A DNA stretch of 32,000 nucleotides from an uncultured Desulfovibrionales bacterium (GCA_964398785.1 CAYNNQ010000021.1:265-32264), one strand, 5' to 3'; shown: positions 129-15,371, counted from the first letter of the stretch. The notes: generated by a model from the letters alone, not told the origin. Made by a program: numbers and translations.

Positions 129-397
129 TATGCCCCCTTCAAGCCGTATTTCTTTGTGTATTTTCGGCTTGGAAAAGCTGTCTTCAAAAATATATCCTCG
201 TCAATTTCGACGTAAGGAACAATGATTGCGTAATTGTCGATTTCCAAAATATACATTTTTTGTTTTGCAAACCCGAGATTTTCCTCTATTCCAATTATCT
301 TATCCGCTTCAATTAAATAGGCGATTTCTTCAAAGGATATTCCGCGTTCTCGTTTTGAGATCTCGTTTTTATTTGAATTCCAATTCAAATATTTCAT
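128..397 (-). CDS. BrnT-like (DUF497) toxin
   Basis: 89 aa with ATG at 397..395. The N-terminus NWNSNKNEISKRERGISFEEIAYLI resembles the W-D-x-x-K-N...HG-[IV]-S-F-E-E signature of DUF497/BrnT. The C-terminal AFPSRKYTKKY resembles the family's ...SARKATKKE..Y tail. The region is AT-rich, and the stop is coupled to the downstream antitoxin start. Confidence 0.65.
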   Translation of the reverse strand: MKYLNWNSNKNEISKRERGISFEEIAYLIEADKIIGIEENLGFAKQKMYILEIDNYAIIVPYVEIDEDIFLKTAFPSRKYTKKYGLKGA

Positions 398-709
398 ATA
401 AATTATATATGCCGTTGCCTGCCTTTTGTCAACACGATCATAAACGGGGGCGAACTTGAAGCGGCTACGGTATTATCTTGGTTTTGCTCATAAGTACCAG
501 CCTGACCCTGGGGCGGGCGATTCCTTTCTTTGTAACCTAGTCCACAGTCTATCCGCGGTTCCGACTACCCGCACCAACCGGTTTTACAACCCACGCATTG
601 CCTGCTATCAATCGCTCTGTCCGCGCCGATATGCCGGAGGGGCGGGTTAAAAACTCACATTTTATAAGTGGGCCCGGTCCCATTTACGAGTATGGTGAAC
701 AGATAGGCT

Positions 710-1909
710 ATGGTCGTAGAGAAAAGAAAAGTCCTAGTCACCGGAGCGGGGTGTATCTGCAGCGCAGGGCCGGACGTCCCCTCGTGCACAGCCGCCCTTT
801 ACTCCGGGGATTTTTCCCCACCGCTCCCCCCGAAGGATTTCATGCCCGGGTTTGAGCAGGACTTCCCGGTTTTTGCCTGCAAAAAGCATTTGCACCCTTC
901 TTACCAAGACGAAAAAAACGTGTTTGTCAGCTCCTCCTTTGCCCTGCAGGCCGCCTTGGAAGCCCTGCATAACGCCCGAATCGACCCCGGGGAACTCAGC
1001 CGAAGCCGCACCGGGATATGCATCGGAACCACGGTCGGGGCCTCGCTCAACATCCTTGATTTCTACAAGCACTGGAAAGAAGGCGGGGACCCGGATCTGG
1101 AACAGATATACCGCTACATGCGCAGCAACCCCGCCCTTTTCCTGCAAAAAAAGTTCGGACTATCCGGGCCGGTGCAGACAAGCACCAACGCCTGCTCCAG
1201 CGGAACCGACGCCATCGGTGTTGGCAGGCAATGGATTCAGCAGGGCCTGTGCGATCGGGTGATCGCCGGGGGAACGGATGAATTGAACGAACTGGCCTAT
1301 AACGGTTTCATCCGGCTCATGAACTGCAGCCTTGAGCCCTGCCGCCCGTTCGATGCCGAGCGCAAGGGCCTAAATCTGGGCGAGGGAGCGGGCATACTTG
1401 TCCTGGAAGCCGAAAAAAACGCGGAAAAACACGGAGCGGACATCCTGGGGGAGGTCGCCGCGTACTCGACCGCGGCGGACGCCCATCACCTGACCGCCCC
1501 CCACCCGGAGGCAAAAGGGCTTGAAATCGCCTTTTCCCGGGTGCTTGAACAGACCGGCATACAAACCCGGGACATCGGTGTAATCAATGTGCACGGCACG
1601 GGGACCACGGCCAACGATCAGGCCGAGGCCCATCTTCTCGCCCGCGGCCCGAAATCGGTTCCCTTTTTCGGGACCAAGGGCATGACCGGACACACCCTGG
1701 GAGCGGCCGGGGCAATGGAAGCAGTGTTCTCCCTGTATTGCCTGCGGGAAAAGAAAGTTCCCCCCACGCCCGGCTTCAACACCCCGGACCCGGAACTCGG
1801 AGTCGCCCCGGCAAAGGGAGGAACCGAGTTAAGCGGTCCCTGGGCGGTTTCCCAATCCCTGGCCTTCGGCGGGAACAATTCGGTTCTTCTCCTCAAGGGG
1901 GAGGGATAG
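710..1909 (+). CDS. beta-ketoacyl-ACP synthase (KAS I/II family), cluster KS-1
   Basis: 399 aa with ATG at 710. All three catalytic motifs are present: active-site Cys in TNACSSGTDAIG, first His in DAHHLTAP, second His in NVHGTGT. The GHTLGAAG loop and FGGNN C-terminus are also present, giving a canonical Cys-His-His KS. Confidence 0.9.
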   Translation: MVVEKRKVLVTGAGCICSAGPDVPSCTAALYSGDFSPPLPPKDFMPGFEQDFPVFACKKHLHPSYQDEKNVFVSSSFALQAALEALHNARIDPGELSRSRTGICIGTTVGASLNILDFYKHWKEGGDPDLEQIYRYMRSNPALFLQKKFGLSGPVQTSTNACSSGTDAIGVGRQWIQQGLCDRVIAGGTDELNELAYNGFIRLMNCSLEPCRPFDAERKGLNLGEGAGILVLEAEKNAEKHGADILGEVAAYSTAADAHHLTAPHPEAKGLEIAFSRVLEQTGIQTRDIGVINVHGTGTTANDQAEAHLLARGPKSVPFFGTKGMTGHTLGAAGAMEAVFSLYCLREKKVPPTPGFNTPDPELGVAPAKGGTELSGPWAVSQSLAFGGNNSVLLLKGEG

Positions 1910-1911
1910 CC

Positions 1912-2787
1912 ATGTATATACTCGGAAAAGGGATAACCGGACCCTTTGGGGGATGGCCGGAATTTAAAGATATCGTCCGGGAGGGCAGACCCCTTTTCGG
2001 GACCGAAGAAAAACACGCTGAAAACCGGGATTTGAGCCGTTTTGTCTCTACCCGGTTCAAACGCCGCCTGGATCACTTCACCAAAATGATCCTCACGGCC
2101 GCGCATCTGGCCCTGGAAGACATGCAGCAGGAAGGAGGGGAAGACCCGGGACGTTTGGGGATCATCCTTACAAGCGGCTACGGGCCCTGTCAGACCACTT
2201 TCGACTTTCTGGACGGAATGATCGATCACGGCCCGAATATGGCTTCTCCCCTGGCCTTCTCCCATTCCGTGCACAATGTCCCGGCCGGAATCCTGGCCAT
2301 GTCCCTCAAGGAGAGCTGTCCGTGCACAAGCATCTGCCAGCCGCAAATGCCGGTATTCTCCGGGCTTGTCCAGGCCGGGGCCTGGCTTGAGCAGGGAGTG
2401 GCGGATACCGTTTTGCTCGGGGCGGCGGATGAGGATACCGAACTCTTGCGCTACTGCCTGGGGCGGATACATCCAGGACTTTCACGCGAGAACACCCTGG
2501 TCCAGGAAGGAGCGGCCTTTTTTTGCCTTAAAAAAACAGCAGAACACCGGCCGCAGGCCAAATTGACTCTGGCCGCCCCCGGGGAAAAAAGTCCGGCTGA
2601 AACCCGGGAGGCGAATCTTTTGGGCATACATCCTTCCTTTCCGGTCCGGGCCGCATTTGAGATGGCCGCATTTATGGCCGGGAAAAAGGATGCAAAAATA
2701 GCTTTGGCTGAAAAAAACCTCTCCGGGGACAAGGCGTTTATATGTATGCATTCACCGAATTCTGCTGATAACCATGCAAAAATATAA
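1912..2787 (+). CDS. truncated KS-like protein (chain-length-factor-like partner of KS-1)
   Basis: I chose the internal ATG at 1912, which follows GGGGAGGGA (SD) and lies 2 nt after the KS-1 stop. The track ORF start at 1738 would overlap KS-1. The product is 291 aa and begins MYILGKGITGPFGG. It has thiolase-fold N-half features (GIILTSGYGP, LLGAADE) but lacks the HxTxP, HGTGT and GHxxGAAG motifs. It is about 100 aa shorter than the real KSs. Confidence 0.7.
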   Translation: MYILGKGITGPFGGWPEFKDIVREGRPLFGTEEKHAENRDLSRFVSTRFKRRLDHFTKMILTAAHLALEDMQQEGGEDPGRLGIILTSGYGPCQTTFDFLDGMIDHGPNMASPLAFSHSVHNVPAGILAMSLKESCPCTSICQPQMPVFSGLVQAGAWLEQGVADTVLLGAADEDTELLRYCLGRIHPGLSRENTLVQEGAAFFCLKKTAEHRPQAKLTLAAPGEKSPAETREANLLGIHPSFPVRAAFEMAAFMAGKKDAKIALAEKNLSGDKAFICMHSPNSADNHAKI

Positions 2788-3961
2788 ACTCACAAAAGAG
2801 GATATTCTTCTTATCCTCAGCGGGATGATCAAGGCCGGGCTCATCGCCCGGGGAGAATACCCGGACTTTATTTTTCGTCCCGGCCCCCTTCCCCCGGAGT
2901 CCCGGATCGGCGCGCAGGGGCTTAATCTAAGCGAGTCCGAGGCAAGCAATCTGCGCCGCCGCGCGGAAGAGATGTTCGGGGGAACTCTCCCGGAAGGGGC
3001 CGCACTGGAAGAGTGGGCGGAGGTCTTGCACGCGGCCCGGAAAAGTTCCGGGCGGGAAAAAATCGTCTTTCACACCTCGGGCAGCACCGGCGAGCCCAAA
3101 CCGAACGCGCACGACTATGCCCTGCTGGCCCAGGAGATCGACTGCCAGAAAGAACTGTACCTGGGGACCGAAAGGATCGTCAGCTTTGTTTTTCCCCAGC
3201 ACATCTACGGCTTTCTGTTCACGATCATGCTCCCCAAGGCCCTGGGGTGCCCGGCGCTTTCCCATCCACCGTTCCCGTCCCGGAAAATAATCGAGGATCT
3301 GCGGGAAAACGATCTGGTGCTCGGATTTCCCCTTTTCTGGAACAAACTTCTGGAAACCGGGAAAACCGTGCCCAGAGGCGTATCCGGAGTAACCTCCACC
3401 GCACCCTGCCCCCGGGAAACAATCCTCAGACTCATGGAAAACGGATTTGAAAAAATAACCGAGATATACGGCTCCTCGGAAACCGGGGGAATCGGCACCC
3501 GGAGTCATCCGGACAAGCCATACACCCTGCTTTCCTGCTGGAACGCCCCCGGCCCGGAAAACCCCGGGCATTTAACCCGAGAGCATCCGGCAAGCAAAAA
3601 GACCCTGTCCTATCCGGTCCCGGATGCGATCACCTGGCTTGGCCCGGACACATTCCTCCCCAGGGGCAGAACGGACAGCGCGGTACAGGTAGCCGGAACC
3701 AATGTCTATCCGAAAAAAATAGAAAACATCCTTTTAAAGCACCCCGAAATCCGGGAGTGCGCCGTCCGTCTCATGCGCCCGGAGGAAGGCTCTAGACTGA
3801 AGGTGTTTATAGTCCCGCAAGGGACGAAGGACCCGGAGGAACTGCGCCGGGAACTTGCGGCCTGGATGAAAAAACACTTGACTGCGGCGGAAATTCCCAA
3901 AAAGATAAATTCGGGATGCGAACTCCCCAAAAACGCCATGGGCAAGATTCAGGACTGGTAA
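2774..3961 (+). CDS. short ANL-superfamily adenylating enzyme (acyl/aryl-AMP ligase, probable starter-unit loader)
   Basis: 395 aa with ATG at 2774, overlapping the upstream gene by 14 nt. Motifs read: FHTSGSTGEPK (A3 P-loop), YGSSETGG (A5), GRTDSAVQVAGTNVYP (A8) and the C-terminal PKNAMGKIQ (A10 Lys). Confidence 0.85.
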   Translation: MQKYKLTKEDILLILSGMIKAGLIARGEYPDFIFRPGPLPPESRIGAQGLNLSESEASNLRRRAEEMFGGTLPEGAALEEWAEVLHAARKSSGREKIVFHTSGSTGEPKPNAHDYALLAQEIDCQKELYLGTERIVSFVFPQHIYGFLFTIMLPKALGCPALSHPPFPSRKIIEDLRENDLVLGFPLFWNKLLETGKTVPRGVSGVTSTAPCPRETILRLMENGFEKITEIYGSSETGGIGTRSHPDKPYTLLSCWNAPGPENPGHLTREHPASKKTLSYPVPDAITWLGPDTFLPRGRTDSAVQVAGTNVYPKKIENILLKHPEIRECAVRLMRPEEGSRLKVFIVPQGTKDPEELRRELAAWMKKHLTAAEIPKKINSGCELPKNAMGKIQDW

Positions 3962-3981
3962 CGAATAAAGGAAAAAAAGAC

Positions 3982-4188
3982 ATGATTGCAAACAAAAACC
4001 GCATTCTTGCAGCGGCAACCGGAGTGCTGCTTTTGCCCCTTTTTTCCTGCACCCCGGTCAAAAAGGCCGGGCACGGCGTGGGCGAGGCCACGGGCAAGAC
4101 GGTCAAGACCATAAAGGAAATACCCGGGGAGATTAAGAAAGGATATAAAAAGGGCAGGACCGAAAACCCCGCCCCTGATGGAAACTAG
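3982..4188 (+). CDS. small Lys-rich lipoprotein (hypothetical)
   Basis: I chose the internal ATG at 3982 (upstream AAAGGAAAAAAAGAC), 20 nt after the ligase stop. The 68 aa product, MIANKNRILAAATGVLLLPLFSC..., has a signal peptide plus lipobox L-F-S-C. Its small size limits confidence. Confidence 0.45.
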   Translation: MIANKNRILAAATGVLLLPLFSCTPVKKAGHGVGEATGKTVKTIKEIPGEIKKGYKKGRTENPAPDGN

Positions 4189-4189
4189 C

Positions 4190-4210
4190 AAACAGCCTAT
4201 TGGGCTGTTT
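4190..4210. terminator. hairpin between convergent lipoprotein genes (possible bidirectional terminator)
   Basis: The stem aaacagcc (4190-4197) pairs with ggctgttt (4203-4210) across the loop tattg, followed by ttct. It overlaps the stop codon of the minus-strand gene. The U-run is short, so this call is weak. Confidence 0.3.
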
Positions 4211-4604
4211 TCTGCTGCATTCTGCGCATTATTGCCTGATCCAGATAATGGATCCAGCCGTTATAGCGTCTATGGATCACGTCCCCGGAATGGCGCATAT
4301 TTCGACTGTCCTTGTACTTGATGCTGTAGCTCTTGTTGTCATAATATATATCCACCTGAGCCATGAGCTTGCCATGATCCAGTGTAGCCACCATATGCCC
4401 CGGGGATTTCTTTTCCGCATGCCACCCCTTGTCCATACATCCCTTGTAGACTGCATCCGCCACCTGCTGAGTGGTAAGTTGTTCGCCGGATTTTGTTGGA
4501 ACCGGGGCCTCGTTTATGTTGTTAATCGGGGCCTCCACAATACAGGCAGTCAAGAAAAGCACTGAAACCAAAGAAATACACCAAGCGCAAAATCTGGGAT
4601 TCAT
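4197..4604 (-). CDS. lipoprotein of unknown function, last gene of the minus-strand KS operon
   Basis: 135 aa with ATG at 4604..4602, preceded by a strong SD (AGGAGG in aaactaggaggtttatATG). The signal peptide has lipobox L-T-A-C (VLFLTAC). It lies 14 nt downstream of the PlsC-like gene. The region is visibly lower in GC than its neighbours. Confidence 0.65.
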   Translation of the reverse strand: MNPRFCAWCISLVSVLFLTACIVEAPINNINEAPVPTKSGEQLTTQQVADAVYKGCMDKGWHAEKKSPGHMVATLDHGKLMAQVDIYYDNKSYSIKYKDSRNMRHSGDVIHRRYNGWIHYLDQAIMRRMQQKTAQ

Positions 4605-4618
4605 ATAAACCTCCTAGT

Positions 4619-5380
4619 TTACGATGCCTCCAGACAGGAAAGCATCATTTTTCTGACATGTCCGGACATGGCCTTTGCCGGTCTTTTCTCCCGAGCGAAA
4701 CCCTGGGGATAAACCGGGTCAAAGAAACACATCCCTATCTGTCCGGGATAAAAGACCTTCTTTCCCGGAGGAAGCAGCCTTGCTGTACCCTTTATGCACA
4801 ACGGAACCACCGGGACATCGGTGCGCTGGGAAATCTGAAACGCGCCGGTCTTGAACCCGGCTAGCACTTCCTCTTTTCTTCGGGTCCCTTCCGGAAAAAA
4901 AAGCAGGCTTATTCCGTTGTTCAACAGTTCCCTGGCCCGGGCGAGAAACGTCTCCGGATCAAGATCCGCGTCCAAATACCCGGACATGCGCATGAACGGG
5001 GCCAGAAAAGGCACCCGGAACGGCCATCCCCGGACAACCATGGAAACGGCCCAGATCGGCTGGGCCCCGAAACAGTATATATCCAGAATGGACTGGTGGT
5101 TGGCGACAAATATATATGGCGGGGAATTCAGATTCTCCTCGCCGCTCTTGTCGAAGCCCAAAAGGGGCTTGCTGGCCAGATACCAAGCTCGGCCGTAAAG
5201 CCAGATCAAAAAAAGACCAAGCCTTACCCCTTTTTTTTCGGAAAGAAATTTACCTGCGGCCAGGACAAAGGGCATGATCGCCAGGGAAAAAAGCACCAAA
5301 ACACCCTTTACCAGGTAAAGCCAGACATTGAAGACAAGCCTTAAAAGAAGGGGGCTTTGGATTCTTCCAGCCTTGATCAT
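4619..5380 (-). CDS. PlsC-type lysophospholipid/1-acyl-glycerol-3-phosphate acyltransferase (LPLAT family)
   Basis: 253 aa with N-terminal hydrophobic helices. It carries the HX4D motif (NHQSILD) and the FPEGTR motif. Its ATG at 5380..5378 overlaps the ACP stop (ATGA at 5377-5380). Confidence 0.85.
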   Translation of the reverse strand: MIKAGRIQSPLLLRLVFNVWLYLVKGVLVLFSLAIMPFVLAAGKFLSEKKGVRLGLFLIWLYGRAWYLASKPLLGFDKSGEENLNSPPYIFVANHQSILDIYCFGAQPIWAVSMVVRGWPFRVPFLAPFMRMSGYLDADLDPETFLARARELLNNGISLLFFPEGTRRKEEVLAGFKTGAFQISQRTDVPVVPLCIKGTARLLPPGKKVFYPGQIGMCFFDPVYPQGFAREKRPAKAMSGHVRKMMLSCLEAS

Positions 5381-5655
5381 TTCCCTATACCTAATCCGTC
5401 CCGCCTGTATTGTTCATATTTTTTCAGGATGTATTCATGCAAATCGCTGACAGTCCGAATTTCCTTCAGTTCTTCTCTGTTCTTGAGTTTAAAACCGAAG
5501 GCCTGCTCCAGGGCAACCACCATATCCACATAGTCCAGGCTGTCCAGTTCCAGGTCCTCGATAAAGCTCGTCTCGGGCCGGAGTTCATCCTCTTCCAATT
5601 CAAACTCCTCGGCCAGGGAGGAATTTATTGTCTGCACTATTTCCGAACGATTCAT
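5377..5655 (-). CDS. acyl carrier protein (cluster ACP-A)
   Basis: 92 aa with the phosphopantetheine attachment motif LELDSLDYVDMVVALE. Its ATG overlaps the KS-2 stop (ATGA at 5652-5655). Confidence 0.85.
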   Translation of the reverse strand: MNRSEIVQTINSSLAEEFELEEDELRPETSFIEDLELDSLDYVDMVVALEQAFGFKLKNREELKEIRTVSDLHEYILKKYEQYRRDGLGIGK

Positions 5656-6878
5656 GGATCATATCTCCTGATCAAAAGGGCCGTATTGATACCCCCAAAG
5701 GCAAAGTTGTTTTTTAATACCGTACGCACCTCCTTTGTGCAATCCTCACATATAAGATTGACTCCAGCACAGTCCGGATCGATATTTTCCAGGTTATTGG
5801 TCCCGAGGAGTAATCCCTCCTGCATCATGCACCCCACAGCAGCGACTTCCAGAGCACCGCTGGCGGCCATAGTATGCCCCAAGTGCCCTTTTAGGCTGCT
5901 CACGGGAACGGAATCACCAAAAATCCGGGCCAGAACCGCGGCCTCGTCCGCATCCCCCTGAATGGTGGAGGTGGCGTGCGCGTTTATGTAATCTACATCC
6001 CCGGGGGCGGCTCCCGCGCTTTGCAAAGCGGACAGGATGCACTCGTGCATTGTCCGCGGATCCGGGCTGACCAGGTTCTTGGCGCAGTTCATGGACCATC
6101 CGGCGATTTCCCCCAGAATGGGGACCCCGCGCTTAAAGGCGGAGGGCAGGGACTCCAGGACCAACACCCCGCCTCCCTCGGAGCAGACAACCCCGTCCCG
6201 ATCCGCGTCAAAGGGCCGGGAGGCGCGTCCGGGATCATCCCAACTTTTGACCGAGGCCGCATCCATCATGTCAAAGGTGCCCACGGTAAGGGGATGGACC
6301 TCGTCCGCCCCGCCGCAAAGCATCACATCCTGCTTGCCCGCGGCTATGGCCTCGGCCCCGAGGGCTATGGCCTGTCCTCCGGTGGCGCAGGCAGCACCCG
6401 GGGAAATGACCCGGCCGCTTATGCCCAGATACTGGGCCACATTGGCCGCGCAGCTGTGATTCATTATCTTGAAGAAATTGGTGGAGCGGATCTGCTCCAC
6501 GCCGGTACCGTGCACAAGATACTTGCGGAAAACATCCTCCAGGACGTAGGGGCTGTTCACCGTACTGGAGATACTCGCCCCGACTCTGCCGCCGCCAAGA
6601 AAGACCTCATCCAGACCGGCCATCCCAACCGCCTCCCTGGAGGCAAGTGCGGCAAATATACCCATCCTGGACATGCTACGGCGAAAGCGCCGGGGAATAT
6701 CCTTTTCCGGCAACTCGGGCACATAAACGCCTGTATTGCTATCCAGACCGGGTATATTTTCCAGTCCCGGATTGTACTCTATCCGGGTTTCCCCCTTTTT
6801 CAATCCGGACCACATACAATCCGTACCCAAGCCGTATGCGGAAACAGCCCCGGTTCCGGTAATCACGACTCTTTGCAC
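5652..6878 (-). CDS. beta-ketoacyl-ACP synthase, cluster KS-2 (atypical: Asn at the first catalytic His position)
   Basis: 408 aa with a GTG start at 6878..6876, preceded by AGGAAGG. Motifs read: active-site Cys in PGAACATGGQAI, second His in NAHATST, Lys in SSLKGHLGH and the FGGINT C-terminus. The segment that aligns with DAYHMTSP of FabF reads CAKNLVSP. Confidence 0.85.
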   Translation of the reverse strand: MQRVVITGTGAVSAYGLGTDCMWSGLKKGETRIEYNPGLENIPGLDSNTGVYVPELPEKDIPRRFRRSMSRMGIFAALASREAVGMAGLDEVFLGGGRVGASISSTVNSPYVLEDVFRKYLVHGTGVEQIRSTNFFKIMNHSCAANVAQYLGISGRVISPGAACATGGQAIALGAEAIAAGKQDVMLCGGADEVHPLTVGTFDMMDAASVKSWDDPGRASRPFDADRDGVVCSEGGGVLVLESLPSAFKRGVPILGEIAGWSMNCAKNLVSPDPRTMHECILSALQSAGAAPGDVDYINAHATSTIQGDADEAAVLARIFGDSVPVSSLKGHLGHTMAASGALEVAAVGCMMQEGLLLGTNNLENIDPDCAGVNLICEDCTKEVRTVLKNNFAFGGINTALLIRRYDP

Positions 6879-8365
6879 TTATACCTTCCTATCTGTTCCA
6901 AGAGTTTTTCTTCGCCCACTATCATTCCACAAGCGACGATTCCAGAGATAACCGTCCCCAGGATCCCCGGAGCGATAACCCCCTGTCCGGCCAGAAAAAG
7001 TCCCTCTATCTTGGTCATGGGCAAAAGGGGGTACTGATGCACAGCGCACTTCGTCCCGTAAAGTCCGCCGCAAGGATTACTACAGTAATCGCGGAAAGTA
7101 AGCGGAGTGGATGTAGCTATCGGCTGTAACCTCCCACGAATTTCGGGTATCTCTTTGTATACTGCCTGAAGAAGCTTATCCGCCAGCCTGTTTTTAAAAT
7201 CCTTATAGTCCGCCGGTCGATTGCCGGATAATGTTTCAATCCATTTTTCAAAACTGGAAAAAGAAGAAGGGGCAATTATTATCACCCCCGTCTTTCCATC
7301 CATTTCCTCGGTCATACTCAAATGCAGGCAGCTTGGCCCATTTTCATTTTCCAGGCCCACAAAGCGGAGCCAGCCTCGTCTCCGCAGGACCAGCCAATTG
7401 GGAACATTGAATATTTCTGGTTTCCTTCCCTCCAGACGGGCATAAAGCACAAAACCGGAAACAGTCTCCTGCATGCCGGAAAACCTTTTCTGCTGTGCCG
7501 GTCGCAGCCCGCTATCTCCCAAAAGCTCCGGGAGGCGGAGCGGGCTGCCGGTATAAACACAGTTTTCGGCAGCCAAGACAAGACCATCGGCCAAACGCAC
7601 GGAGCGGATGCGTCTCGAAGCGTCCAGTCCCAATTCCGTGGCCCGGCTAGAACAAAAAATATCCACCCCGTATTTCTTGAGACTGTTATGAAAAGCCCGG
7701 ACAAGACTCCGACCGCCACCTTTGATATAGTGCACCGAACGTAGATAGGAAGCAAAGATCTGGGCATGGACCTGCATAGTAGCCTCGCTAGGTTCCACTC
7801 CGGCCAGGATCGCCGGGTAGGAAAAGACCGCCCGCAATCCGGGATCGTCTACGTTCTCCCCCAAAAAATGTCCAACGCTTATGTCCTGTTGGATATACGA
7901 TTCCAGACTGTTTTTCTTACCCCCCTTGAAGGTGAGATATGGTGAGGATGTCCAGTAATTGGCGCATTCCCGAAAAAAATGCTCGACTTCCTCCCGGCGA
8001 TGGGGATACATGCGCAAAAGATCCTGTCGGAGCCGATCCGGCCCATAGGAAACAAAAAAATCATCCCCTAAATCGGGACCGCGCAATCCCAAAAATCCAT
8101 CACTGGGGAGCTCTCCTCCCTCGAGTCCATCCTTAAGGCCCAGGAACCGAAAATAGGTATCCAGGACATGTCCCTCTCCCAGCTCCCCCACATAATGCAC
8201 GCCAGTATCGAAAAATATGCCCTGCCTCTGAAACCCACGCAGGGTTGGAGCAAGCATGGATGAGGACTCCACCAGAGCAACCCGGTGCTCCATTCTGGCC
8301 AGGGCTATTGCCGTAGTCATGCCGGCCGCTCCCCCGCCGATCACAACCGTATCATAACTGGACAT
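6863..8365 (-). CDS. FAD/NAD(P)-dependent oxidoreductase, phytoene desaturase (CrtI)/CrtISO/retinol-saturase-like family
   Basis: I chose ATG 8365..8363 (MSSYDTVVIGGGAAGMTT...RVALVE, a dinucleotide-binding GxGxxG fold right at the N-terminus). This ATG shares one base with the KS-3 stop (TGATG at 8367..8363). The track start at 8419 would overlap KS-3 by 55 nt. The product is 500 aa, and its C-terminal GLFLAGQGVIAPG is typical of the family. Its 3' end overlaps the KS-2 start by 16 nt. Confidence 0.85.
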   Translation of the reverse strand: MSSYDTVVIGGGAAGMTTAIALARMEHRVALVESSSMLAPTLRGFQRQGIFFDTGVHYVGELGEGHVLDTYFRFLGLKDGLEGGELPSDGFLGLRGPDLGDDFFVSYGPDRLRQDLLRMYPHRREEVEHFFRECANYWTSSPYLTFKGGKKNSLESYIQQDISVGHFLGENVDDPGLRAVFSYPAILAGVEPSEATMQVHAQIFASYLRSVHYIKGGGRSLVRAFHNSLKKYGVDIFCSSRATELGLDASRRIRSVRLADGLVLAAENCVYTGSPLRLPELLGDSGLRPAQQKRFSGMQETVSGFVLYARLEGRKPEIFNVPNWLVLRRRGWLRFVGLENENGPSCLHLSMTEEMDGKTGVIIIAPSSFSSFEKWIETLSGNRPADYKDFKNRLADKLLQAVYKEIPEIRGRLQPIATSTPLTFRDYCSNPCGGLYGTKCAVHQYPLLPMTKIEGLFLAGQGVIAPGILGTVISGIVACGMIVGEEKLLEQIGRYKCKES

Positions 8366-9579
8366 CAAAACCCCAAAATCAAAGAACAGTTGCTTCCTCC
8401 AAAACCGGCGGAATTGCACATAACCCTTCTCGGCTTTTCCAGCACAGTTTCCGGGACTATATTCAGCCCTTCAGCCGCAGGGTCTGGAACACTGAAATTG
8501 ATATTCGGAGCAACAAAAGCGTGTCTGGCCATCAGGCAGGAATAGACAACCTGGGAAGCACCGGCCATCCACAATTCATGCCCGGTCATGGACTTAAGGG
8601 AGGAAACCATGGGAGAGCAATCCGAAAAGACCCGGCGGATATTTTCCGCCTCTCCGGCATCCCCGGCCGGAGTAGAGGTGGCATGGGCGCAGACATAGTC
8701 AATATCACCCGGAGACAGGGCAGCATCCTCCAGGGCCTTGTCCATAGCTTGGGCCAATCCCGAAAAACTGGGGACTGAAAGATGATACCCATCCGAGGAG
8801 AAGCCATAACCTATAACCTCCCCCAGTACAGGACCGCCCCGGCGTCGGACCTCTTCCCGGTCCTCCAGTATAAGTGCTGCCGCCCCTCCGCTGGGCACCA
8901 ATCCTTCCCTGGAGGCATCAAAGGGGCGACTGGCCCTTTCCGGATTTTCTGTATCCCGGGAAAATGCCCCCAGCCCGTCAAAACTACATGTGGATTCCCA
9001 GTTTATCTCCTGTGCCCCGCCGCAGACCACTTTCTTCTGTCGTCCCAGGGCAATCAGGTCATAAGCTTGGCCCACGGCGTTGCCACCGCTAGAGCATGCG
9101 GAGCTCACGGTCCAGCAGGCCCCCATGTTTCCCAAAAGGACATTCAGATTCATGGTTACAGTGGAGTTCATGGAACGGAAAATAGCCCCGCTACCGATGG
9201 ACCCGGTTGCTCCCCTCTCTCTTAAAAGATCCACCTGTTCCGCGCATGCCCCGCAGGATGAATCCACGCCGAAGATCAGGCCGGTATCCCCATTTTGCAG
9301 ATCCTGTTCTTGCAGACCGGATTCCTGCATGGCCTCAAGGACTGCGGCATACGCCTGCACCCCGAATTCGGGCAGAGTTTTCCTCTGTTTGCGATTTAGG
9401 TACGCGGCGGGTCTGAATCCTTCAATCTTTCCCGTCAAGGGACTGAAAAAACCAAGCTTCTCCCGTTCGGAATCGATCCCGATCCCGGAAAGGCCGTGAT
9501 ACAGGGATTCGGCCACGGCCTGCTTCCCGATGCCGATGCTGGAGACGATTCCCGTCCCGGTTATTACTACCCGCTTCAT
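8365..9579 (-). CDS. beta-ketoacyl-ACP synthase, cluster KS-3
   Basis: 404 aa with ATG at 9579..9577. Motifs read: active-site Cys in SSACSSGGNAVG, first His in SSDGYHLSVP, second His in CAHATSTPAGD and the FGGSN C-terminus. This gives a Cys-His-His KS. Confidence 0.9.
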   Translation of the reverse strand: MKRVVITGTGIVSSIGIGKQAVAESLYHGLSGIGIDSEREKLGFFSPLTGKIEGFRPAAYLNRKQRKTLPEFGVQAYAAVLEAMQESGLQEQDLQNGDTGLIFGVDSSCGACAEQVDLLRERGATGSIGSGAIFRSMNSTVTMNLNVLLGNMGACWTVSSACSSGGNAVGQAYDLIALGRQKKVVCGGAQEINWESTCSFDGLGAFSRDTENPERASRPFDASREGLVPSGGAAALILEDREEVRRRGGPVLGEVIGYGFSSDGYHLSVPSFSGLAQAMDKALEDAALSPGDIDYVCAHATSTPAGDAGEAENIRRVFSDCSPMVSSLKSMTGHELWMAGASQVVYSCLMARHAFVAPNINFSVPDPAAEGLNIVPETVLEKPRRVMCNSAGFGGSNCSLILGF

Positions 9580-9791
9580 GATTCCCGCTTATTTATTGCC
9601 ATATTTATCCGAACGCGGCCTAAGCCGACGACTCGGTGTTTTATAAAAATTATGCTGAATAATTACATTGCAATTACGTTTTTACAGGTGTGTTTGCAGG
9701 ACAACATTATCAAAATACGCCCCAGTTCAAGGCTCAATGCAAGCCCAACGTCTTTTTTAGTCCTTATGCCGGGATATTGAAGGCCACAAAA

Positions 9792-10520
9792 TCAGGTATG
9801 GACTCCGCCGTTAACGGAAATTACTTCTCCTGTAATGTACCCGGCCCGCTGGGAACACAAAAACGAAACCACGCCGGCCACTTCCTCCGGTTTGCCGAAA
9901 CGCCTGAGTGGTATCCGGTTTAAAATCTCTTCTTGGGACAATTCCTCAAGCATTCCGGTATCAATAAACCCCGGCGCAACAGCATTGACCAATATATTGC
10001 GTTTGGCCACTTCCACGGCCAGAGACCGCGTGGCCCCGATAAGCCCAGACTTGGCCGCGGAATAGTTCACCTGCCCCGGCACACCGGTCTCTCCGGATGT
10101 AGAGGCTATATTGACTATCCGTCCCTCTTTGCGTCTGAGCATCTTTTCCACCACCGGCTTGGTTACATTGTAGAACCCTTCCAGATGCACCTGCAAAACA
10201 TCCTTCCAGTCCTTTTCCTTCATCCATACCAAAAGTGTATCCCGATTGAATCCGGCGTTATTCACCAACGCATACGGGATGTCTTGTTCCAGACGGGGTT
10301 GAAGGGCCTCTCGCGTTTCATCCCCGTCGGCAACATCAAACCCCATAATTTCGCATTTACGGCCCATTTCCCGAATATCTGCAGCAACTTCCTCGGCTGC
10401 GGAAAGATTACTTTTGTAATTTAGCCAAATATCGAATCCATCTGCAGCCAGCGCCCGGGCTGTAGCCGCACCAATGCCCTTGCTTGCGCCGGTTATCAAA
10501 GCTATACGTTCACTTCCCAT
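9792..10520 (-). CDS. 3-oxoacyl-ACP reductase-like short-chain dehydrogenase (FabG family)
   Basis: I chose the internal ATG 10520..10518 (MGSERIALITGASKGIGAA), because the 30-codon upstream extension in the track looks non-coding. The 242 aa product has TGxxxGIG, NNAG and YSAAKSG (YxxxK) motifs. A 212 bp gap separates it from KS-3 downstream. Confidence 0.9.
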   Translation of the reverse strand: MGSERIALITGASKGIGAATARALAADGFDIWLNYKSNLSAAEEVAADIREMGRKCEIMGFDVADGDETREALQPRLEQDIPYALVNNAGFNRDTLLVWMKEKDWKDVLQVHLEGFYNVTKPVVEKMLRRKEGRIVNIASTSGETGVPGQVNYSAAKSGLIGATRSLAVEVAKRNILVNAVAPGFIDTGMLEELSQEEILNRIPLRRFGKPEEVAGVVSFLCSQRAGYITGEVISVNGGVHT

Positions 10521-10665
10521 TTTATGCCACCCCTTGACCACAGAATTTATACAATTAAAATAGAGGGATATCTGTTTATAATTGTTTATCACTTCCACTT
10601 GTAGTGACAAAAGTTTATAATACGGATAGGGTGTTTAGTCAAAATTTCAATATGAGCAACAAGAT
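10521..10665. promoter_or_regulatory. AT-rich divergent promoter region (fabG-like gene leftward, radical SAM operon rightward)
   Basis: This 145 bp AT-rich spacer lies between divergent starts. It contains a perfect TATAAT at 10616-10621, about 45 nt upstream of ATG 10666, but I found no convincing -35 element. The call is positional only. Confidence 0.3.
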
Positions 10666-11952
10666 ATGAAACTAAAACTTATTTATCCCAGCTGGCCCAA
10701 GCTGCGGAATCAAACCAAATTTGACCTTCCCCCGCACGGTCCGGTGGTTATGGCCACCACTGTCCCTAAAGAAGTACAAATCCGGTTCACTGACGAAAAC
10801 ATTCAGGATATAGACTTTGAAGAAAAAGCGGATCTGGTGGCCATTTCCGTAATGCTCACCTGCCAACTCCCCCGGGCCTTTGAAATAGCCGCGGAATTCA
10901 GGGAAAGGGGAATACCCGTTCTTTTCGGGGGGATTTCCACCACCCTGCACAAGGAAGAAGTCAGCCGGCATGCGGACAGCATTTTTCTGGGGGAAACAGA
11001 GGGGAGATTCGCGGAGGTAATCCAGGATTTCCTAAGCAATCGCCTGAAAAAAGTATACGATTATTCCCGGCAACATCCGGACATGGCTCTTGTGGAAACC
11101 GCCCGCAGAGATATCTTGCAACGGGAACTATATAATTATCGGGGTGTACAGATGGTGGATCTGGTACATGCCTCGAGGGGGTGCCGCTTCAATTGCTTTC
11201 CCTGTTGCTCCCGCTACCTGGGCGGGAAAAAACACCGCCCCCGTCCTCTATCCAAAGTTGTTCAAGAAATGGAATCCATACCCAATAACCGCCTTTTTTT
11301 GGTAGACAACTCCCTGGCCCAGAACAAAAAATGGTTGCGGGAACTCTTTACCGCAATACAGCCTTTAAAAAAGAAATGGATATCCCACCCGGTATTTTAC
11401 GACCCGGAAATAATCAATCTGGCGGCAAAGGCCGGTTGCTGGTATGTTTATCAGGCAATTATAGACACCTCGGAAAAAACCAAAGAACGTATCAAAATGC
11501 TCAAGGACCACGGAATCGGAATTGAGGGAACCATTCTCTTGGGAACCGATGACCACGACGAATCATATATAAAAAGGCTGGTCGATTTCCTTCTGGAAAA
11601 CGAATTGGACCTGGCCGAGTTCACCATACTCACCCCTTTCCCGCATACACCGATTCGCAGGCAGTTCGAAGCCGAGGGTCGGATTCTTTCCAACGAATGG
11701 ATCAAATACACCACGGACCAGGTGGTTTTCCAGCCGGCGAAAATGACCGTGGATAAATTACAGGAGCTATACGATTATGCCTGGGATACATTTTACGGCA
11801 AGGGGGGACAACAATTGAGGATGGCTCAACTCCTGAGAAAAGTTATAGAGAAGGAAAAAACAGACGGCACCTATCGCCGCTACGATCCTCCCCAAGGGAA
11901 TGCGAACTACAGTAGCCTGGACACAGAGCAAAAAACATCAGCAATGGATTAA
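10666..11952 (+). CDS. B12-binding-domain radical SAM enzyme (class B), rSAM-1
   Basis: 428 aa. The N-terminal Rossmann-like cobalamin-binding region (LIYPSWPK...LPPHGPVVMAT...ADLVAISV...PVLFGG) is followed by the CxxxCxxC cluster motif GCRFNCFPC (nt 11182-11205). Confidence 0.9.
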   Translation: MKLKLIYPSWPKLRNQTKFDLPPHGPVVMATTVPKEVQIRFTDENIQDIDFEEKADLVAISVMLTCQLPRAFEIAAEFRERGIPVLFGGISTTLHKEEVSRHADSIFLGETEGRFAEVIQDFLSNRLKKVYDYSRQHPDMALVETARRDILQRELYNYRGVQMVDLVHASRGCRFNCFPCCSRYLGGKKHRPRPLSKVVQEMESIPNNRLFLVDNSLAQNKKWLRELFTAIQPLKKKWISHPVFYDPEIINLAAKAGCWYVYQAIIDTSEKTKERIKMLKDHGIGIEGTILLGTDDHDESYIKRLVDFLLENELDLAEFTILTPFPHTPIRRQFEAEGRILSNEWIKYTTDQVVFQPAKMTVDKLQELYDYAWDTFYGKGGQQLRMAQLLRKVIEKEKTDGTYRRYDPPQGNANYSSLDTEQKTSAMD

Positions 11953-11978
11953 ACCCAAACTCCCTGCATCCTTATTAC

Positions 11979-14321
11979 ATGGACAACAAAAGAATACTTC
12001 TGGTCCATCCATTGGGCTACGATTCTATATACGCGGGCCAGGACGTGGCCAGGCTGGCCAATCTCATGCCGCCTTTGGGTCTGGCCTCTCTGGCTTCCTA
12101 TCTGGAAAACAACGGTCTGCGCGCGGATATTTTGGACTGCTTTGCCCATCCGGACTGCCTGGACAGAATGAACAGCTATCTCCGCGAATATCGCCCCAGA
12201 TTTATCGGCCTGACCTGCACTACATCGGCGTTCCCCAACTCAGTCCAAATCATCCAGAGAGCCAAACAGATACTCCCGGAAATCAGATCCGTAGTCGGCG
12301 GAGCGCACCCTTCTGCTCTAAAAGAAGAAGCCCTTCGGGACAGCCCGGATGTGGACTATGCCGTAGTGGGCGAGGGAGAAAAGCCACTAAAGAGACTGCT
12401 CCAACGGACGGAAAAAGAAGCACACCTCATTCCTGGTATATGTTATCACGGCCATAACGGTCCGGTATTTAACGGGACGCAAACAGATCTGGTCCAACTG
12501 GACGATCTCCCTTTCCCTGCCTATGATAAATTACCCGGTTTCCCGGATACCTATACTCTGCCGGTATTCAATTATCCCCGCCGCCCAAACACCAGTTGCA
12601 TATCCAGCCGCGGATGCCCGTACAAGTGCTCCTACTGCGACCGTTCCGTGTTTGGATCCAGTTTCCGGTACAACTCCGCCGGATATCTCTATGCACATAT
12701 GCGCTATCTCCACAACCGCTGGGGGATCAGACATATAAATTTCTATGACGACCAGTTCACTTTGAATCGCGGGCGGGTAGCGGAACTATGCACCATGCTC
12801 ATGGACCATCCCTTGGGTATGACCTTTAACTGTGCGGCCAGGGCGGAACACGTGGATCCGGAGCTTTTGGAGATGATGAAAGACGCCGGATGCTGGATGA
12901 TAAGCCTGGGCATAGAAAACGGCAATCAAAAACTGCTTTCCAAGCACAGGCAAAATGCCAATCTGGATATGGTCGCCCGCACTGTAAAGGATATAAAAAA
13001 GGCCGGCATAAGAGCAAAAGGCCTATTCATGCTCGGACTGCCCGGTGAAACGGAAAAGACAATCAAAGAGACCAAAACCTATGCACATTCACTTAACCTG
13101 GACGACCTAAATCTAGCCAAGTTCACCCCCTTTCCAGGCTCCCCACTTTATAAAGACATACATATCCACGGCAAATTCGAGGAAGACTATGCCCGAATGG
13201 ACTGCATGCATTTCTTATTCATACCCCAAGGACTATCGGAACAATTCTTGGAAGACAAATTCCAGGAATTTTACAAAGAACATTTCACCCGCCCCCGCAC
13301 TCTATACAACTACTTGTCCATGCTCTGGAAATCCCCGGACAGCTGGAAGAGATTCATCCTCTCTCTGCCGGATTTCCTTAAATTCGCCCATCAGGGAAAC
13401 CGGATGAGCGCGGAGGCCTCCTCACATAAGCGCAACTGGGACAGCAAAAGTCTAGGTGGAGAATGGCAGCACCGTTTCTTTTATGCCCTAATTCGGACGT
13501 TAGGTGTTCGCCCGGCCTATGCTTTTCTTTACCCGGTCACTCTGTGGTACGTTCTTCTTCACCCCAGTGTACGCCGCAGAATCAGACCTTACCTTAAACA
13601 CCGCTTCCCGGAAAAAAAAGCCATCCCCAGACTCTTCGCCACCTACCGTTTGAGTTTGAACTTTGCCCAAATATTGGTGGATCGTGCAGCTATAGGCATT
13701 CTGGGGTCCAGCAGATTCAAAATAGATTTTCCGGAAAGAGAAAAGTTCCGGGAAATAGCGCATCAGGGTAAGGGGGCGGTATTGATCAATACCCACGCAG
13801 GCTCCTGGCAGGTAGCCATAGCCGCTTTGGAACTTTTGTCCACGCCAATATCCATGCTTATGCAAAAAGACCGGAAAGATGTGGATCGCCCATACTACAG
13901 CCACCGCCAACAAGAAAGTCCGTACAGGACCATCGATCCGAGCAAAGGGAGTGAAGCCATGCTGGAGATGTTCAACTCCCTGAAAAAAGGTGAAATACTG
14001 GGAGTCATGGGCGACCGGGCCTTTGGTAATGACAAAAACCTGGTCGATGTTGATTTTTTGGGGAAAAAGGCTTGGCTGCCATTTAGCCCGTATAAGCTGG
14101 CTTCCTCCACCGGAGCACCGTGTATGGTTCTCTTAACGCACAGAACCGGATATCTGCATTATACAGTCCGATTGGCCCGGGTGATTGATGTCCCCAGGGA
14201 CCTGGGCCGCCAGCCGGGAAATTTCCGGGAATACGCCCAAGAATATACACATACCCTGGAAGAATTTGTAAAAAAACATCCTTGGCAATTCTTCAACTTC
14301 TACGACATGTGGGAAAAATAA
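11979..14321 (+). CDS. fusion protein: B12-binding radical SAM enzyme (rSAM-2) plus C-terminal LpxL/HtrB-type (lipid A biosynthesis) acyltransferase domain
   Basis: A single uninterrupted 780 aa ORF. The N-terminal half has the B12-binding region (ILLVHP...MPPLGLASLASYL) and CxxxCxxC GCPYKCSYC (nt 12615-12638). The C-terminal ~300 aa (from about nt 13420) has a hydrophobic anchor (AYAFLYPVTLWYVLL), a catalytic-loop-like NTHAGSWQ (nt 13794-13811) and the family-typical tail HPWQFFNFYDMW. Confidence 0.9.
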   Translation: MDNKRILLVHPLGYDSIYAGQDVARLANLMPPLGLASLASYLENNGLRADILDCFAHPDCLDRMNSYLREYRPRFIGLTCTTSAFPNSVQIIQRAKQILPEIRSVVGGAHPSALKEEALRDSPDVDYAVVGEGEKPLKRLLQRTEKEAHLIPGICYHGHNGPVFNGTQTDLVQLDDLPFPAYDKLPGFPDTYTLPVFNYPRRPNTSCISSRGCPYKCSYCDRSVFGSSFRYNSAGYLYAHMRYLHNRWGIRHINFYDDQFTLNRGRVAELCTMLMDHPLGMTFNCAARAEHVDPELLEMMKDAGCWMISLGIENGNQKLLSKHRQNANLDMVARTVKDIKKAGIRAKGLFMLGLPGETEKTIKETKTYAHSLNLDDLNLAKFTPFPGSPLYKDIHIHGKFEEDYARMDCMHFLFIPQGLSEQFLEDKFQEFYKEHFTRPRTLYNYLSMLWKSPDSWKRFILSLPDFLKFAHQGNRMSAEASSHKRNWDSKSLGGEWQHRFFYALIRTLGVRPAYAFLYPVTLWYVLLHPSVRRRIRPYLKHRFPEKKAIPRLFATYRLSLNFAQILVDRAAIGILGSSRFKIDFPEREKFREIAHQGKGAVLINTHAGSWQVAIAALELLSTPISMLMQKDRKDVDRPYYSHRQQESPYRTIDPSKGSEAMLEMFNSLKKGEILGVMGDRAFGNDKNLVDVDFLGKKAWLPFSPYKLASSTGAPCMVLLTHRTGYLHYTVRLARVIDVPRDLGRQPGNFREYAQEYTHTLEEFVKKHPWQFFNFYDMWEK

Positions 14322-14346
14322 TCATGTACAAAATAGCGGGGAAAAA

Positions 14347-14601
14347 ATGGAGATCAAGACTCAGCTAAAGGAAAAATTAATCGAAGGACTCAACCTGGAA
14401 GACATCCGGCCGGAGGATATAATGGATGACCAGCCGCTTTTCGGGGAAGGACTGGGACTGGACTCCCTGGATGCAGTGGAGTTGGTAGTCATAATCCAGA
14501 AGAATTTCGGGGTGGAGATAAGCGATATGGAACAGGGGAGGCAGGCATTCGCCTCGATTAACGCCCTGGCCGAATTCATAGAAATCAACCAATCCCACTA
14601 A
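14347..14601 (+). CDS. acyl carrier protein (cluster ACP-B)
   Basis: 84 aa with ATG at 14347 preceded by GGGGAAAAA. It carries the Ppant attachment motif LGLDSLDAVELVVIIQ and lies 25 nt after the fusion gene. Confidence 0.85.
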   Translation: MEIKTQLKEKLIEGLNLEDIRPEDIMDDQPLFGEGLGLDSLDAVELVVIIQKNFGVEISDMEQGRQAFASINALAEFIEINQSH

Positions 14602-14668
14602 ACCAATAAGCCACACAACTATAACATCAATTTAAATGAGGCCGGAATTTTCCCTGCCCAACCATAAA

Positions 14669-15319: not shown

Positions 15320-15371
15320 CTGCCACTCCACTTATCTATAAAACCACATAAACAAAATATTTCCAAAATAG

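Follow-up and report, generated by a model that had tools for sequence, protein, structure and literature searches.

A probable reduced and rearranged aryl-polyene-type cluster with CrtI-like flavoenzyme and cobalamin radical SAM genes in an uncultured Desulfovibrionales bacterium

The DNA analysed in this study is a stretch of 32,000 nucleotides (hereafter, the window) from an uncultured Desulfovibrionales bacterium (GCA_964398785.1, CAYNNQ010000021.1:265-32264), and its positions 710-14601 are occupied by a gene cluster for the building and transfer of acyl chains. Listing of the open reading frames (ORFs) and scans with Pfam and NCBIfam revealed 14 ORFs, g1 to g14, arranged in three transcription units: a plus-strand unit at 710-4188 (g1-g4), a minus-strand unit at 10520-4197 (g11-g5), and a second plus-strand unit at 10666-14601 (g12-g14). 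A preliminary description, made from the sequence of the window, had reported thirteen genes in three units; the three units hold, and the count has to be raised to 14. Two small lipoprotein genes had been left uncounted. The genes of the cluster are as follows:

710-1909, plus strand: g1, active ketosynthase (KS), the KS partner of a KS/chain-length factor pair, ApeO position
1912-2787, plus strand: g2, truncated KS-like protein/chain-length factor (CLF), PF13723
2774-3961, plus strand: g3, short ANL ligase of 395 aa, AMP-binding and AMP-binding_C domains
3982-4188, plus strand: g4, lipoprotein of 68 aa, lipobox LFSC
4197-4604, minus strand: g5, lipoprotein of 135 aa, lipobox LTAC, last gene of the minus-strand unit
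4619-5380, minus strand: g6, PlsC/LPLAT-type acyltransferase, ApeD position, PF01553 (3.6e-21), motifs NHQSILD (HX4D) and FPEGTR
5377-5655, minus strand: g7, acyl carrier protein (ACP) of the fatty acid synthase (FAS) type, ApeF position, PP-binding domain with DSL motif
5652-6878, minus strand: g8, ApeR-type (FabB-like) KS, best PDB matches to ApeR structures
6863-8365, minus strand: g9, CrtI/RetSat-like FAD enzyme, Amino_oxidase and NAD_binding_8 domains
8365-9579, minus strand: g10, second FabB/FabF-like active KS, from Pfam/NCBIfam and alignment
9792-10520, minus strand: g11, FabG/ApeQ/FlxB-like ketoreductase (KR), from NCBIfam scores
10666-11952, plus strand: g12, B12-binding/radical S-adenosylmethionine (SAM) protein, motif CRFNCFPC, PF02310 at 33 bits, PF04055 weak
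11979-14321, plus strand: g13, B12-radical SAM::LpxL/LpxM-type acyltransferase fusion of 780 aa, motif CPYKCSYC, Lip_A_acyltrans domain at residues 494-778
14347-14601, plus strand: g14, ApeE-type starter ACP, NF006617

The close packing of the genes can be read directly in the sequence. In the minus-strand unit, g10 and g9 are joined by TGATG at 8363-8367, g9 and g8 overlap by 16 nt (6863-6878), ATGA occurs at 5652-5655 and at 5377-5380, and g6 is separated from g5 by a 14-nt gap with AGGAGG (4605-4618); g1 and g2 on the plus strand lie 2 nt apart. All of the junctions quoted in the preliminary description were thus recovered, as were all of its catalytic motifs, but the tight packing it ascribed to the minus-strand unit is broken by a 212-nt gap (9580-9791) that parts the KR gene g11 from the rest. 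Its parts list likewise names the right components, except that the LpxL-type acyltransferase is not a separate gene but the C-terminal domain of g13.

Alignment of the four KS-like proteins demonstrated that the Cys-His-His triad is intact in g1, g8 and g10, and that g2 is devoid of both the catalytic Cys and the whole C-terminal (thiolase) half. The g1 protein contains the N- and C-terminal ketoacyl-synt domains of Pfam, scores 243 bits with NF006618, and has PDB matches to a KS-heterodimer chain (9s5h_B; 4e-61) and to AbApeO (7f28_B; 4e-41). The g2 protein belongs to PF13723 (Ketoacyl-synt_2; 2e-15) and matches 9s5h_C (1.5e-6) and ApeC (7f28_A; 0.009). Hence, g1 and g2 match both chains of 9s5h, cited here only as a two-chain KS entry, possibly the anammox amxFabF heterodimer, and, more weakly, the ApeO/ApeC structure 7F28. 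In the related clusters described below, g1 always follows the g14-type ACP gene. Judged from these features, g1 and g2 are a KS and truncated-CLF pair of the kind formed by ApeO and ApeC in aryl polyene (APE) systems. The best PDB matches of g8 are PpApeR (4EWG; 3e-73) and AbApeR (7F27; 6e-69), with all FabB entries behind them (FabB, 5e-56) (PMC8358021), and the protein scores 319 bits with NF006587; by similarity, it is the second, FabB-like KS (ApeR) of an APE cluster. The remaining KS gene, g10, occupies the same position in the related loci L087, L035, L047 and L056.

The two ACPs of the locus are of different kinds. The g14 protein exceeds the cut-off of NF006617 (78.7 bits; cut-off, 70), and its best PDB match is ApeE (9LS6; 9e-15), the next one being at 1.6e-6 (PMC12624758); g7 passes NF003757 (69 bits; cut-off, 65). 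By sequence, then, the locus has the two ACPs of an APE system, with g14 as the ApeE-type starter ACP and g7 as a FAS-like one. The ligase g3 is best matched in NCBIfam by TIGR02372, 4-coumarate-CoA ligase (244 bits; cut-off, 335). ApeE is the ACP that ApeH loads with a 4-hydroxybenzoyl starter (PMC12624758), and, by analogy with this pair, g3 presumably charges g14 with a starter, a carboxylic acid that is probably aromatic. For the KR g11, the best scores were obtained with NF053542, FlxB (313 bits; cut-off, 340), and NF004200, FabG (306 bits; cut-off, 273). Compared with the ApeD/ApeJ attachment pair of APE clusters, the locus has the PlsC-type g6 and the LpxM-like domain of g13 and no GT2/DUF2062 part.

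A genome scan with g12 yielded 274 relatives, the best 80 of which were used as loci (designated here by L numbers), and further contigs were added. The proteins of the window and of a Desulfuromonas cluster were then mapped onto these loci. The 80 best relatives of g12 come from Desulfobacterota, Nitrospirota, Planctomycetota, Syntrophia, Geobacterales, Omnitrophota and Rokubacteria. The canonical cluster is encoded on a single strand, its first half being ordered KR-(deacetylase)-KS(g10)-CrtI-like(g9)-KS(g8)-ACP(g7)-PlsC(g6)-ApeP-LolA-MMPL-(unknown)-ApeI-4HBT-KS-short KS, with g6 placed after a KS-ACP pair, and its second half B12(g12)-radical SAM (TIGR04072, 686 bits)-radical SAM (the N-terminal half of g13, g13N)-GT2/DUF2062-LpxL (the C-terminal half of g13, g13C)-ACP(g14)-KS(g1)-CLF(g2). 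A g3-type ligase is also found in a Halodesulfovibrio cluster. Gene frequencies were taken from the 39 loci flanked by about 10 kb on each side: the 4HBT gene is present in 36 of them, ApeI in 35, the TIGR04072 radical SAM gene in 35, GT2 in 34, MMPL in 33, ApeP in 32, and LolA in 32. Since the two small hot-dog proteins of the canonical relatives are named ApeI-like and ApeP-like by Pfam, the parent can be described as an aryl-polyene-type cluster with embedded flavoenzyme and B12-radical SAM genes.

A Brocadiia metagenome-assembled genome (MAG), locus L004, has the order LpxL-KR-CrtI-like-KS-radical SAM (g13N-type)-GT2, which agrees with the synteny between anammox bacteria, Desulfotalea and Geobacter reported by Rattray et al. 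in 2009 for genes annotated 'SAM radical', 'phytoene dehydrogenase', 'phenylacetyl-CoA ligase', glycosyltransferase (GT) and membrane protein (PMC2649909). The preliminary description had noted a likeness to both aryl-polyene and anammox ladderane-candidate gene sets. The likeness is real, and, compared gene by gene, the aryl-polyene clusters and the 'ladderane candidate' clusters of 2009 are one cluster family. Such clusters are labelled 'ladderane' by antiSMASH, have been reported in Desulfobacterota and many other phyla with function unknown, and are expressed in anoxic waters (PMC9902471). As the preliminary description had stated, they have no biochemically assigned product: in the literature, no characterised product was found for APE-like clusters with radical SAM genes or for any member of the family.

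The genes that the window has in common with this parent retain their local order and are divided into three blocks. The contiguous block ApeP-LolA-MMPL-ApeI-thioesterase-KS-KS has been lost. Two further losses, separate from each other, are those of the TIGR04072 radical SAM gene and of GT2; with GT2 missing, a single ORF unites the g13N-type radical SAM and LpxL-like genes. Neither tblastn with the Desulfuromonas proteins nor Pfam detected homologues of ApeI, ApeP, the 4HBT thioesterase, LolA, MMPL or GT2 in the 32 kb. Therefore, the dehydratase pair ApeI and ApeP of APE systems is absent from the window, and from the related reduced loci also, and the export pair of an MMPL/RND protein (ApeM) and a LolA-like protein (ApeL) is absent from the window. 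The absence of dehydratase, thioesterase, GT, LolA and MMPL genes, recorded in the preliminary description, was thus borne out at the locus, and it extends to the same place in five related assemblies. It was taken there to separate the locus from canonical aryl-polyene clusters, but the locus is no independent invention: by comparison of gene content and order, it has arisen through deletion and rearrangement from a widespread cluster, and the missing genes are present in 32-36 of the 39 fully flanked loci. The lack of an enoyl reductase, cited there as another distinguishing trait, is usual among APE clusters.

Relatives show synteny for the gene set, as the preliminary description required of a dedicated pathway. 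The same reduced layout occurs in L006 and L005, whose g12 is 84% identical to that of the window, in L085/L003 and, in part, in L088/L089, and it is common to at least three further Desulfonatronovibrionaceae-like lineages. In comparisons with both L085 and L006, dN/dS is 0.07-0.27 for all genes. Because all of the genes are under purifying selection, the reduced form appears to be maintained rather than decaying. The flanks of the relatives hold other genes (an IS5-type transposase or a CDF transporter on the left; an RRM protein, an MFS transporter and AddAB on the right), which places the ends of the cluster at g1 and g14 in all of them.

The flavoenzyme g9 lies between the KS genes g10 and g8 with overlapping stop and start codons, and the same arrangement is seen in L087, L035 and Brocadiia L004. 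A phytoene-desaturase-like flavoenzyme among FabF paralogues is a mark of the ladderane-type clusters, and g9, going by its similarity and position, is such an enzyme. Its score with crtI_fam (84 bits) is below the cut-off, its PDB match to CrtI (4dgk) is at 4e-5, and its homologues are annotated as retinol saturase by JGI. The g9 protein is thus a predicted C-C desaturase or saturase; since the likeness to CrtI is distant and the JGI annotation names a saturase, the reaction may run in either direction. A second CrtI-like paralogue, 24-29% identical to g9, was observed in canonical clusters (L087, 3104-5998, minus strand; right ends of L028, L020, L041, L059 and L071), and L087 also has a gene for a MaoC-type dehydratase upstream on the opposite strand; therefore, the parent cluster reaches beyond the 21 kb fetched.

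Both radical SAM proteins carry the CxxxCxxC motif. The g12 protein is the most conserved one of the cluster family: among the best 80 of its 274 relatives, identity across phyla is 63-85%, and its dN/dS is 0.08, which suggests a very constrained enzyme. No NCBIfam family claims it at its cut-off. In comparisons between phyla, g12 retains 63-70% identity, against 30-46% for the accompanying KS and CLF genes, and clustering of the g12 orthogroup at 50% gave two full-length representatives plus fragments. According to Pfam, g13 consists of a B12-radical SAM part (residues 1 to ~470) and an LpxL/LpxM-type secondary acyltransferase (~494-780). Its AlphaFold2 (AF2) model has a confident radical SAM domain, a disordered linker (473-498) and a C-terminal domain matching LpxM (5knk/5kn7). 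In the modelled radical SAM domain, the best structural match is AprD4 (6fd2; TM 0.75), followed by TsrM, MgmA, TokK, OxsB and CysS. By hidden Markov models (HMMs), g13N is nearest to HpnJ (197 bits; cut-off, 578) and to BchE, far below the cut-offs, and for its Desulfuromonas orthologue BchE scores as well as HpnJ. Given these neighbours, methylation is not a safe default for g13N. That the radical SAM enzymes tailor the acyl chain, as the preliminary description proposed, is an assumption; the nearest characterised relatives of the second one, HpnJ and BchE in the HMM comparison and AprD4 in the structural one, have amino sugars as substrates or catalyse other non-methylating reactions.

Thousands of proteins of ~480 aa from Desulfobacterota, Planctomycetota (including Brocadiia), Verrucomicrobiota and Elusimicrobiota share about 60% identity with the radical SAM half of g13, whose fusion to the LpxL-like domain was found only in Desulfonatronovibrionaceae/Desulfovibrionales MAGs. 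The fusion suggests that the radical step is tied to the acyl-transfer step. The radical SAM452 neighbour of the canonical clusters (TIGR04072, 686 bits) has no orthologue in the window by tblastn, and neither g12 (39 bits) nor g13 (104 bits) reaches the TIGR04072 cut-off of 360. As a side observation, the radical SAM domain of g13 (11979-13400) has ~130 invariant columns in 40 sequences from many phyla. Four invariant cysteines (C54, C285, C305 and C409) lie outside CxxxCxxC, and a second cluster might be bound by them.

The likeness of the locus to the APE/APEL clusters (apeA-R) of E. coli CFT073, Xenorhabdus doucetiae and Acinetobacter baumannii, APEL being the aryl polyene lipid form, comprises the KS with a truncated CLF, the ApeR-type KS, the ApeE-type and second ACPs, the FabG-like KR, the short adenylating enzyme, the PlsC-type and second acyltransferases, and the absence of an enoyl reductase. 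In contrast to these clusters, the window lacks ApeI/ApeP, the ApeK thioesterase, ApeJ, the ApeL/ApeM/ApeN export genes and the ApeB methyltransferase, possesses in addition two B12-radical SAM proteins (one of them fused to an LpxL-like acyltransferase), a CrtI-like flavoenzyme and a third KS, and belongs to an uncultured anaerobe. With the clusters of 2009 (Kuenenia stuttgartiensis kuste3335-3352, Desulfotalea psychrophila, Geobacter, Pelobacter) it shares FabF paralogues (one of them inactive), radical SAM/B12 proteins, a phytoene-desaturase-like enzyme, an aryl-acid-type CoA ligase and acyltransferases; it differs from them in having no glycosyltransferase, membrane (MMPL) protein, deacetylase or TIGR04072 radical SAM. 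Taken together, these comparisons make it probable that the locus is a reduced and rearranged member of the APE/APEL type II polyketide synthase (PKS)/FAS clusters, from an anaerobe-specific branch with a CrtI-like flavoenzyme and cobalamin radical SAM proteins, to which the 'ladderane-like' cluster of 2009 corresponds.

The APE lipid of Xenorhabdus is assembled from two cluster-made chains. A conjugated 3-hydroxy fatty acid is built on ApeF and placed by the PlsC-type ApeD at sn-2 of a lysophospholipid, and the aryl polyene is built on ApeE, from which ApeJ, a glycosyl/acyl-transferase, passes it to GalNAc (bioRxiv 10.1101/2020.12.19.423268; PMC8253772). The gene adjacency, in the canonical cluster as in the window, maps cleanly onto this scheme, and by analogy with it we infer two arms, together with their substrates, order of steps and product. 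In the first arm, g3 would load a carboxylic-acid (probably aromatic) starter on g14, and the g1/g2 heterodimer would extend it with malonyl units. In the second arm, g11, g10, g8 and g9 would build another chain on the ACP g7, with the flavoenzyme g9 acting on this chain, and the PlsC-type g6 would put it on a lysophospholipid. The LpxM-like domain of g13 may move the first-arm chain to a hydroxyl group, either on the lipid or on a sugar that the lipid bears, and g12 and the radical SAM half of g13 may perform radical modifications on the intermediate handled by the acyltransferase domain. Dehydration could come from housekeeping FabZ/FabA or be skipped, which would leave β-hydroxy groups, the natural acceptors of LpxL/LpxM-type enzymes; glycosylation and export may likewise be provided in trans or be dispensed with. 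Accordingly, the lipid made would probably be simpler than those of the full clusters, and, without LolA and MMPL, it may stay in the inner membrane.

Several observations weigh against this assignment. The g1 protein is no nearer to ApeO than to ordinary FabF, and g7 is a generic ACP with PDB matches to generic ACPs (ApeF 9l1v, 5e-7). The substrate and acceptor of g3 are proposed by analogy with ApeH/ApeE. In place of the H-x4-E of LpxM, the LpxL-like domain of g13 has H-x4-Q (HAGSWQ, residues 605-610, 13791-13808). Moreover, ApeI and ApeP belong to the core of characterised APE systems, in which most core-gene deletions abolish the pigment (PMC8253772), and a version without dehydratases may for this reason make no polyene. 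As regards the acyltransferase motif, its Gln is kept in nearly all cluster-linked homologues (more than 60 related loci), and Glu is found in Brocadiia L004 and a few others.

The strongest alternative, possible although considerably less likely than a reduced APE-type cluster, is that the cluster is split, with the dehydratases, thioesterase, GT2, TIGR04072 radical SAM and LolA/MMPL moved en bloc elsewhere in the genome and the same outer-membrane lipid made as by the canonical clusters. In canonical clusters, most of the missing genes lie side by side as a single block and could move together. Two loci each are present in Kuenenia and D. psychrophila according to the synteny of 2009 (PMC2649909), and modular reshuffling is evident in L047, L055, L056, L073 and L078. 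However, GT2 and rSAM452 lie outside the block and were each lost separately, and the loss of GT2 left an in-frame radical SAM::LpxL fusion. The flanks in five assemblies are unrelated to the cluster (a toxin-antitoxin module, an IS5 transposase, a CDF transporter, an MFS transporter, AddAB). A search with a Desulfovibrionales (Halodesulfovibrio) ApeM-type MMPL query gave 10 matches, none of them from Desulfonatronovibrionaceae, although its word-based prefilter makes this search insensitive.

It is also conceivable, though rather unlikely, that the reduced cluster is a self-sufficient, minimal 'ladderane-like' core. Such a core would follow a dehydratase-free anaerobic route in which g9 sets the unsaturation and the two radical SAM proteins, one of them coupled physically to the LpxM-like acyltransferase, carry out C-C bond, ring or methyl chemistry on a chain or head group bound to lipid, and it would make an undescribed lipid class. 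If so, g12, which is claimed by no curated family, would represent a new radical SAM enzyme function.

That the locus is a decaying, functionless remnant of the canonical cluster is improbable. About ten genes have been lost relative to canonical clusters, and the metagenomic relative L089 has a split g1 and insertion elements between genes. Against this, all 14 ORFs of the window are intact, translational coupling is kept, and the layout persists in at least three further lineages, at dS 0.35-2 over the central genes and the low dN/dS given above. In L089, g1 (2298-3496) is split into two ORFs of 183 and 245 aa by a frameshift or a sequencing error.

It is very improbable that the product is a ladderane or another cyclobutane or cyclised fatty acid, with the flavoenzyme making a polyunsaturated chain that the B12-radical SAM proteins would cyclise. 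Homologues of g11, g9, g8, g13N and g13C occur together in the Brocadiia MAG, and the same set of KR, CrtI-like, KS, radical SAM and LpxL genes is found in the proposed ladderane clusters (PMC2649909); the antiSMASH label points the same way (PMC9902471). Nevertheless, ladderanes are not made by D. psychrophila, although it has a syntenic cluster (PMC2649909), the candidate preferred at present for ladderane synthesis is an anammox-specific one, Cluster I, with amxACP and amxFabZ, which is not present here (bioRxiv 10.64898/2026.05.19.726425), the 'ladder' radical SAM of TIGR04072 is missing from the window, and the family is spread over many non-anammox phyla. Outside anammox bacteria, such clusters have no link to ladderanes.

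Ordinary housekeeping type II fatty-acid/phospholipid synthesis (fabF, fabG, acpP, plsC), to which the scores of g11 with the FabG model and of g7 with the generic ACP model might point, is the least credible explanation of all, as the KSs reach only 250-309 bits against a cut-off of 494 for the FabF equivalog TIGR03150, the ACPs 59 and 39 bits against 70 for TIGR00517, and the KR alone passes its Fab model; as a truncated CLF, an ANL ligase, an ApeE-type ACP, a CrtI-like enzyme and radical SAM proteins are present; as FabD, FabH, FabZ, FabI and PlsX are not in the window; and as the genes are orthologous to those of a specialised cluster.

Two other known systems bear a partial resemblance. 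The flexirubin/xanthomonadin type II PKS clusters have a similar aryl-starter architecture, and FlxB is the best match of g11; however, the FlxB cut-off is not reached, and the window has no dialkylresorcinol (DarAB) or halogenase genes. To our knowledge, radical SAM and CrtI-like genes are not part of flexirubin/xanthomonadin clusters. The second resemblance is to hopanoid tailoring by HpnI/HpnK/HpnJ and to the AprD4 diol dehydratase, which g13N recalls by family score and by structure, respectively. In canonical clusters, the g13N-type radical SAM gene adjoins GT2, and L087, the only locus inspected for this, has a polysaccharide deacetylase gene beside that of the KR, an arrangement resembling the amino-sugar GT/deacetylase/radical SAM triad; in contrast, the window has neither the GT nor the deacetylase. 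The HpnI/HpnK/HpnJ analogy for the canonical genes was kept only as a weak alternative, because BchE equals HpnJ in score and the best match of GT2, PpgS, is far below cut-off.

As a genomic pattern, this type of cluster has been known since 2009, and it is flagged routinely by antiSMASH (PMC9902471). What appears to be new is the explicit placing of the 'ladderane-like' clusters found in anaerobes other than anammox bacteria within the APE-lipid type, as clusters that have gained CrtI-like and B12-radical SAM genes, and the recognition of a conserved minimal variant that has no dehydratase, thioesterase, glycosyltransferase or export genes at the locus and carries a radical SAM::LpxM-like fusion. 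At least 274 species-level genomes, belonging to anaerobes of many phyla, contain clusters of the family, which has been linked tentatively to the unsolved biosynthesis of ladderanes. Viewed as APEL-type, the family gains a biochemical template of two ACP-bound chains with PlsC-type and ApeJ/LpxL-type transfers. With 12 enzyme/carrier genes in 14 kb, the version in the window is the smallest conserved form seen here. If it works alone, it would be the most tractable construct for resolving the roles of the B12-radical SAM and CrtI-like enzymes; if it does not, it would illustrate the modularity of the family.

The divergence between the window and L085/L003 is mosaic. The g1-g4 genes and the MFS/AddAB flank are 92-96% identical (dS 0.04-0.2), and g5-g14 are 68-86% identical, with dS mostly ~1-2 (0.35-0.5 for g8 and g7), a distance equal to that from L006. 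From this pattern, the central ~11 kb (within 4197-15365) looks replaced by recombination, as at variable surface-structure loci.

The other features of the locus and its borders are as follows:

655-709, plus strand: conserved ~55-nt motif directly upstream of g1, also in the L089 insertion elements
10521-10665, no strand assigned: AT-rich region between the divergent units, with promoter-like sites on both strands
14669-15331, minus strand: g15, lipoprotein of 220 aa without a family match, doubtful as a member of the cluster

The lipoprotein genes g4 and g5 both lie at the convergent junction. The g4 gene is kept in L085 (93%) and L006 (61%), and its product has no Pfam or NCBIfam match; g5 is kept only in reduced clusters, with 70-73% identity and dN/dS of 0.12-0.17, and its AF2 model (pLDDT 72) has no PDB fold match at E<=1e-3. 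The g15 gene is absent from L085, L003 and L006, an RRM_1 gene being found in its place in close relatives; a 40% homologue directly follows the CLF gene in the Pirellulales MAG locus L019 (13382-14020). In the divergent region, consensus matches give plus-strand promoter-like sites at 10534-10561 and 10555-10582 and a minus-strand site at 10610-10581, and a terminator-like hairpin lies 3' of g5. A scan of the whole window with Rfam detected no riboswitch (cobalamin included) and no other RNA family in the cluster, and a tRNA scan found none.

The ~55-nt motif (…CACATTTTATAAGTGGGCCCGGTCCCATTTACGAGTATGGTGAACAG…) is common to the 3' ends of two insertions in L089, and its pattern occurs once in the window, against 0 expected. 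These insertions, at 4349-4696 (between g2 and g3) and 5893-6214 (after g3), are 320-350 bp long, 73% alike and contain internal palindromes; neither they nor the motif have an Rfam match. By its position and recurrence, the motif may be a mobile promoter or leader element.

In the relatives, several assemblies break less than 1 kb upstream of g1; an IS5-type transposase gene is inserted in another gene in L088 (708-2018), and L089 has a CDF cation-efflux gene at 429-1292. The left flank of the window (3-397, minus strand) encodes a BrnT-like toxin (128-397) and a small downstream ORF, and the right flank an ATG22-type MFS transporter, AddAB, MscS, a methyltransferase, IlvD, LpxC, PrmC and RF1.

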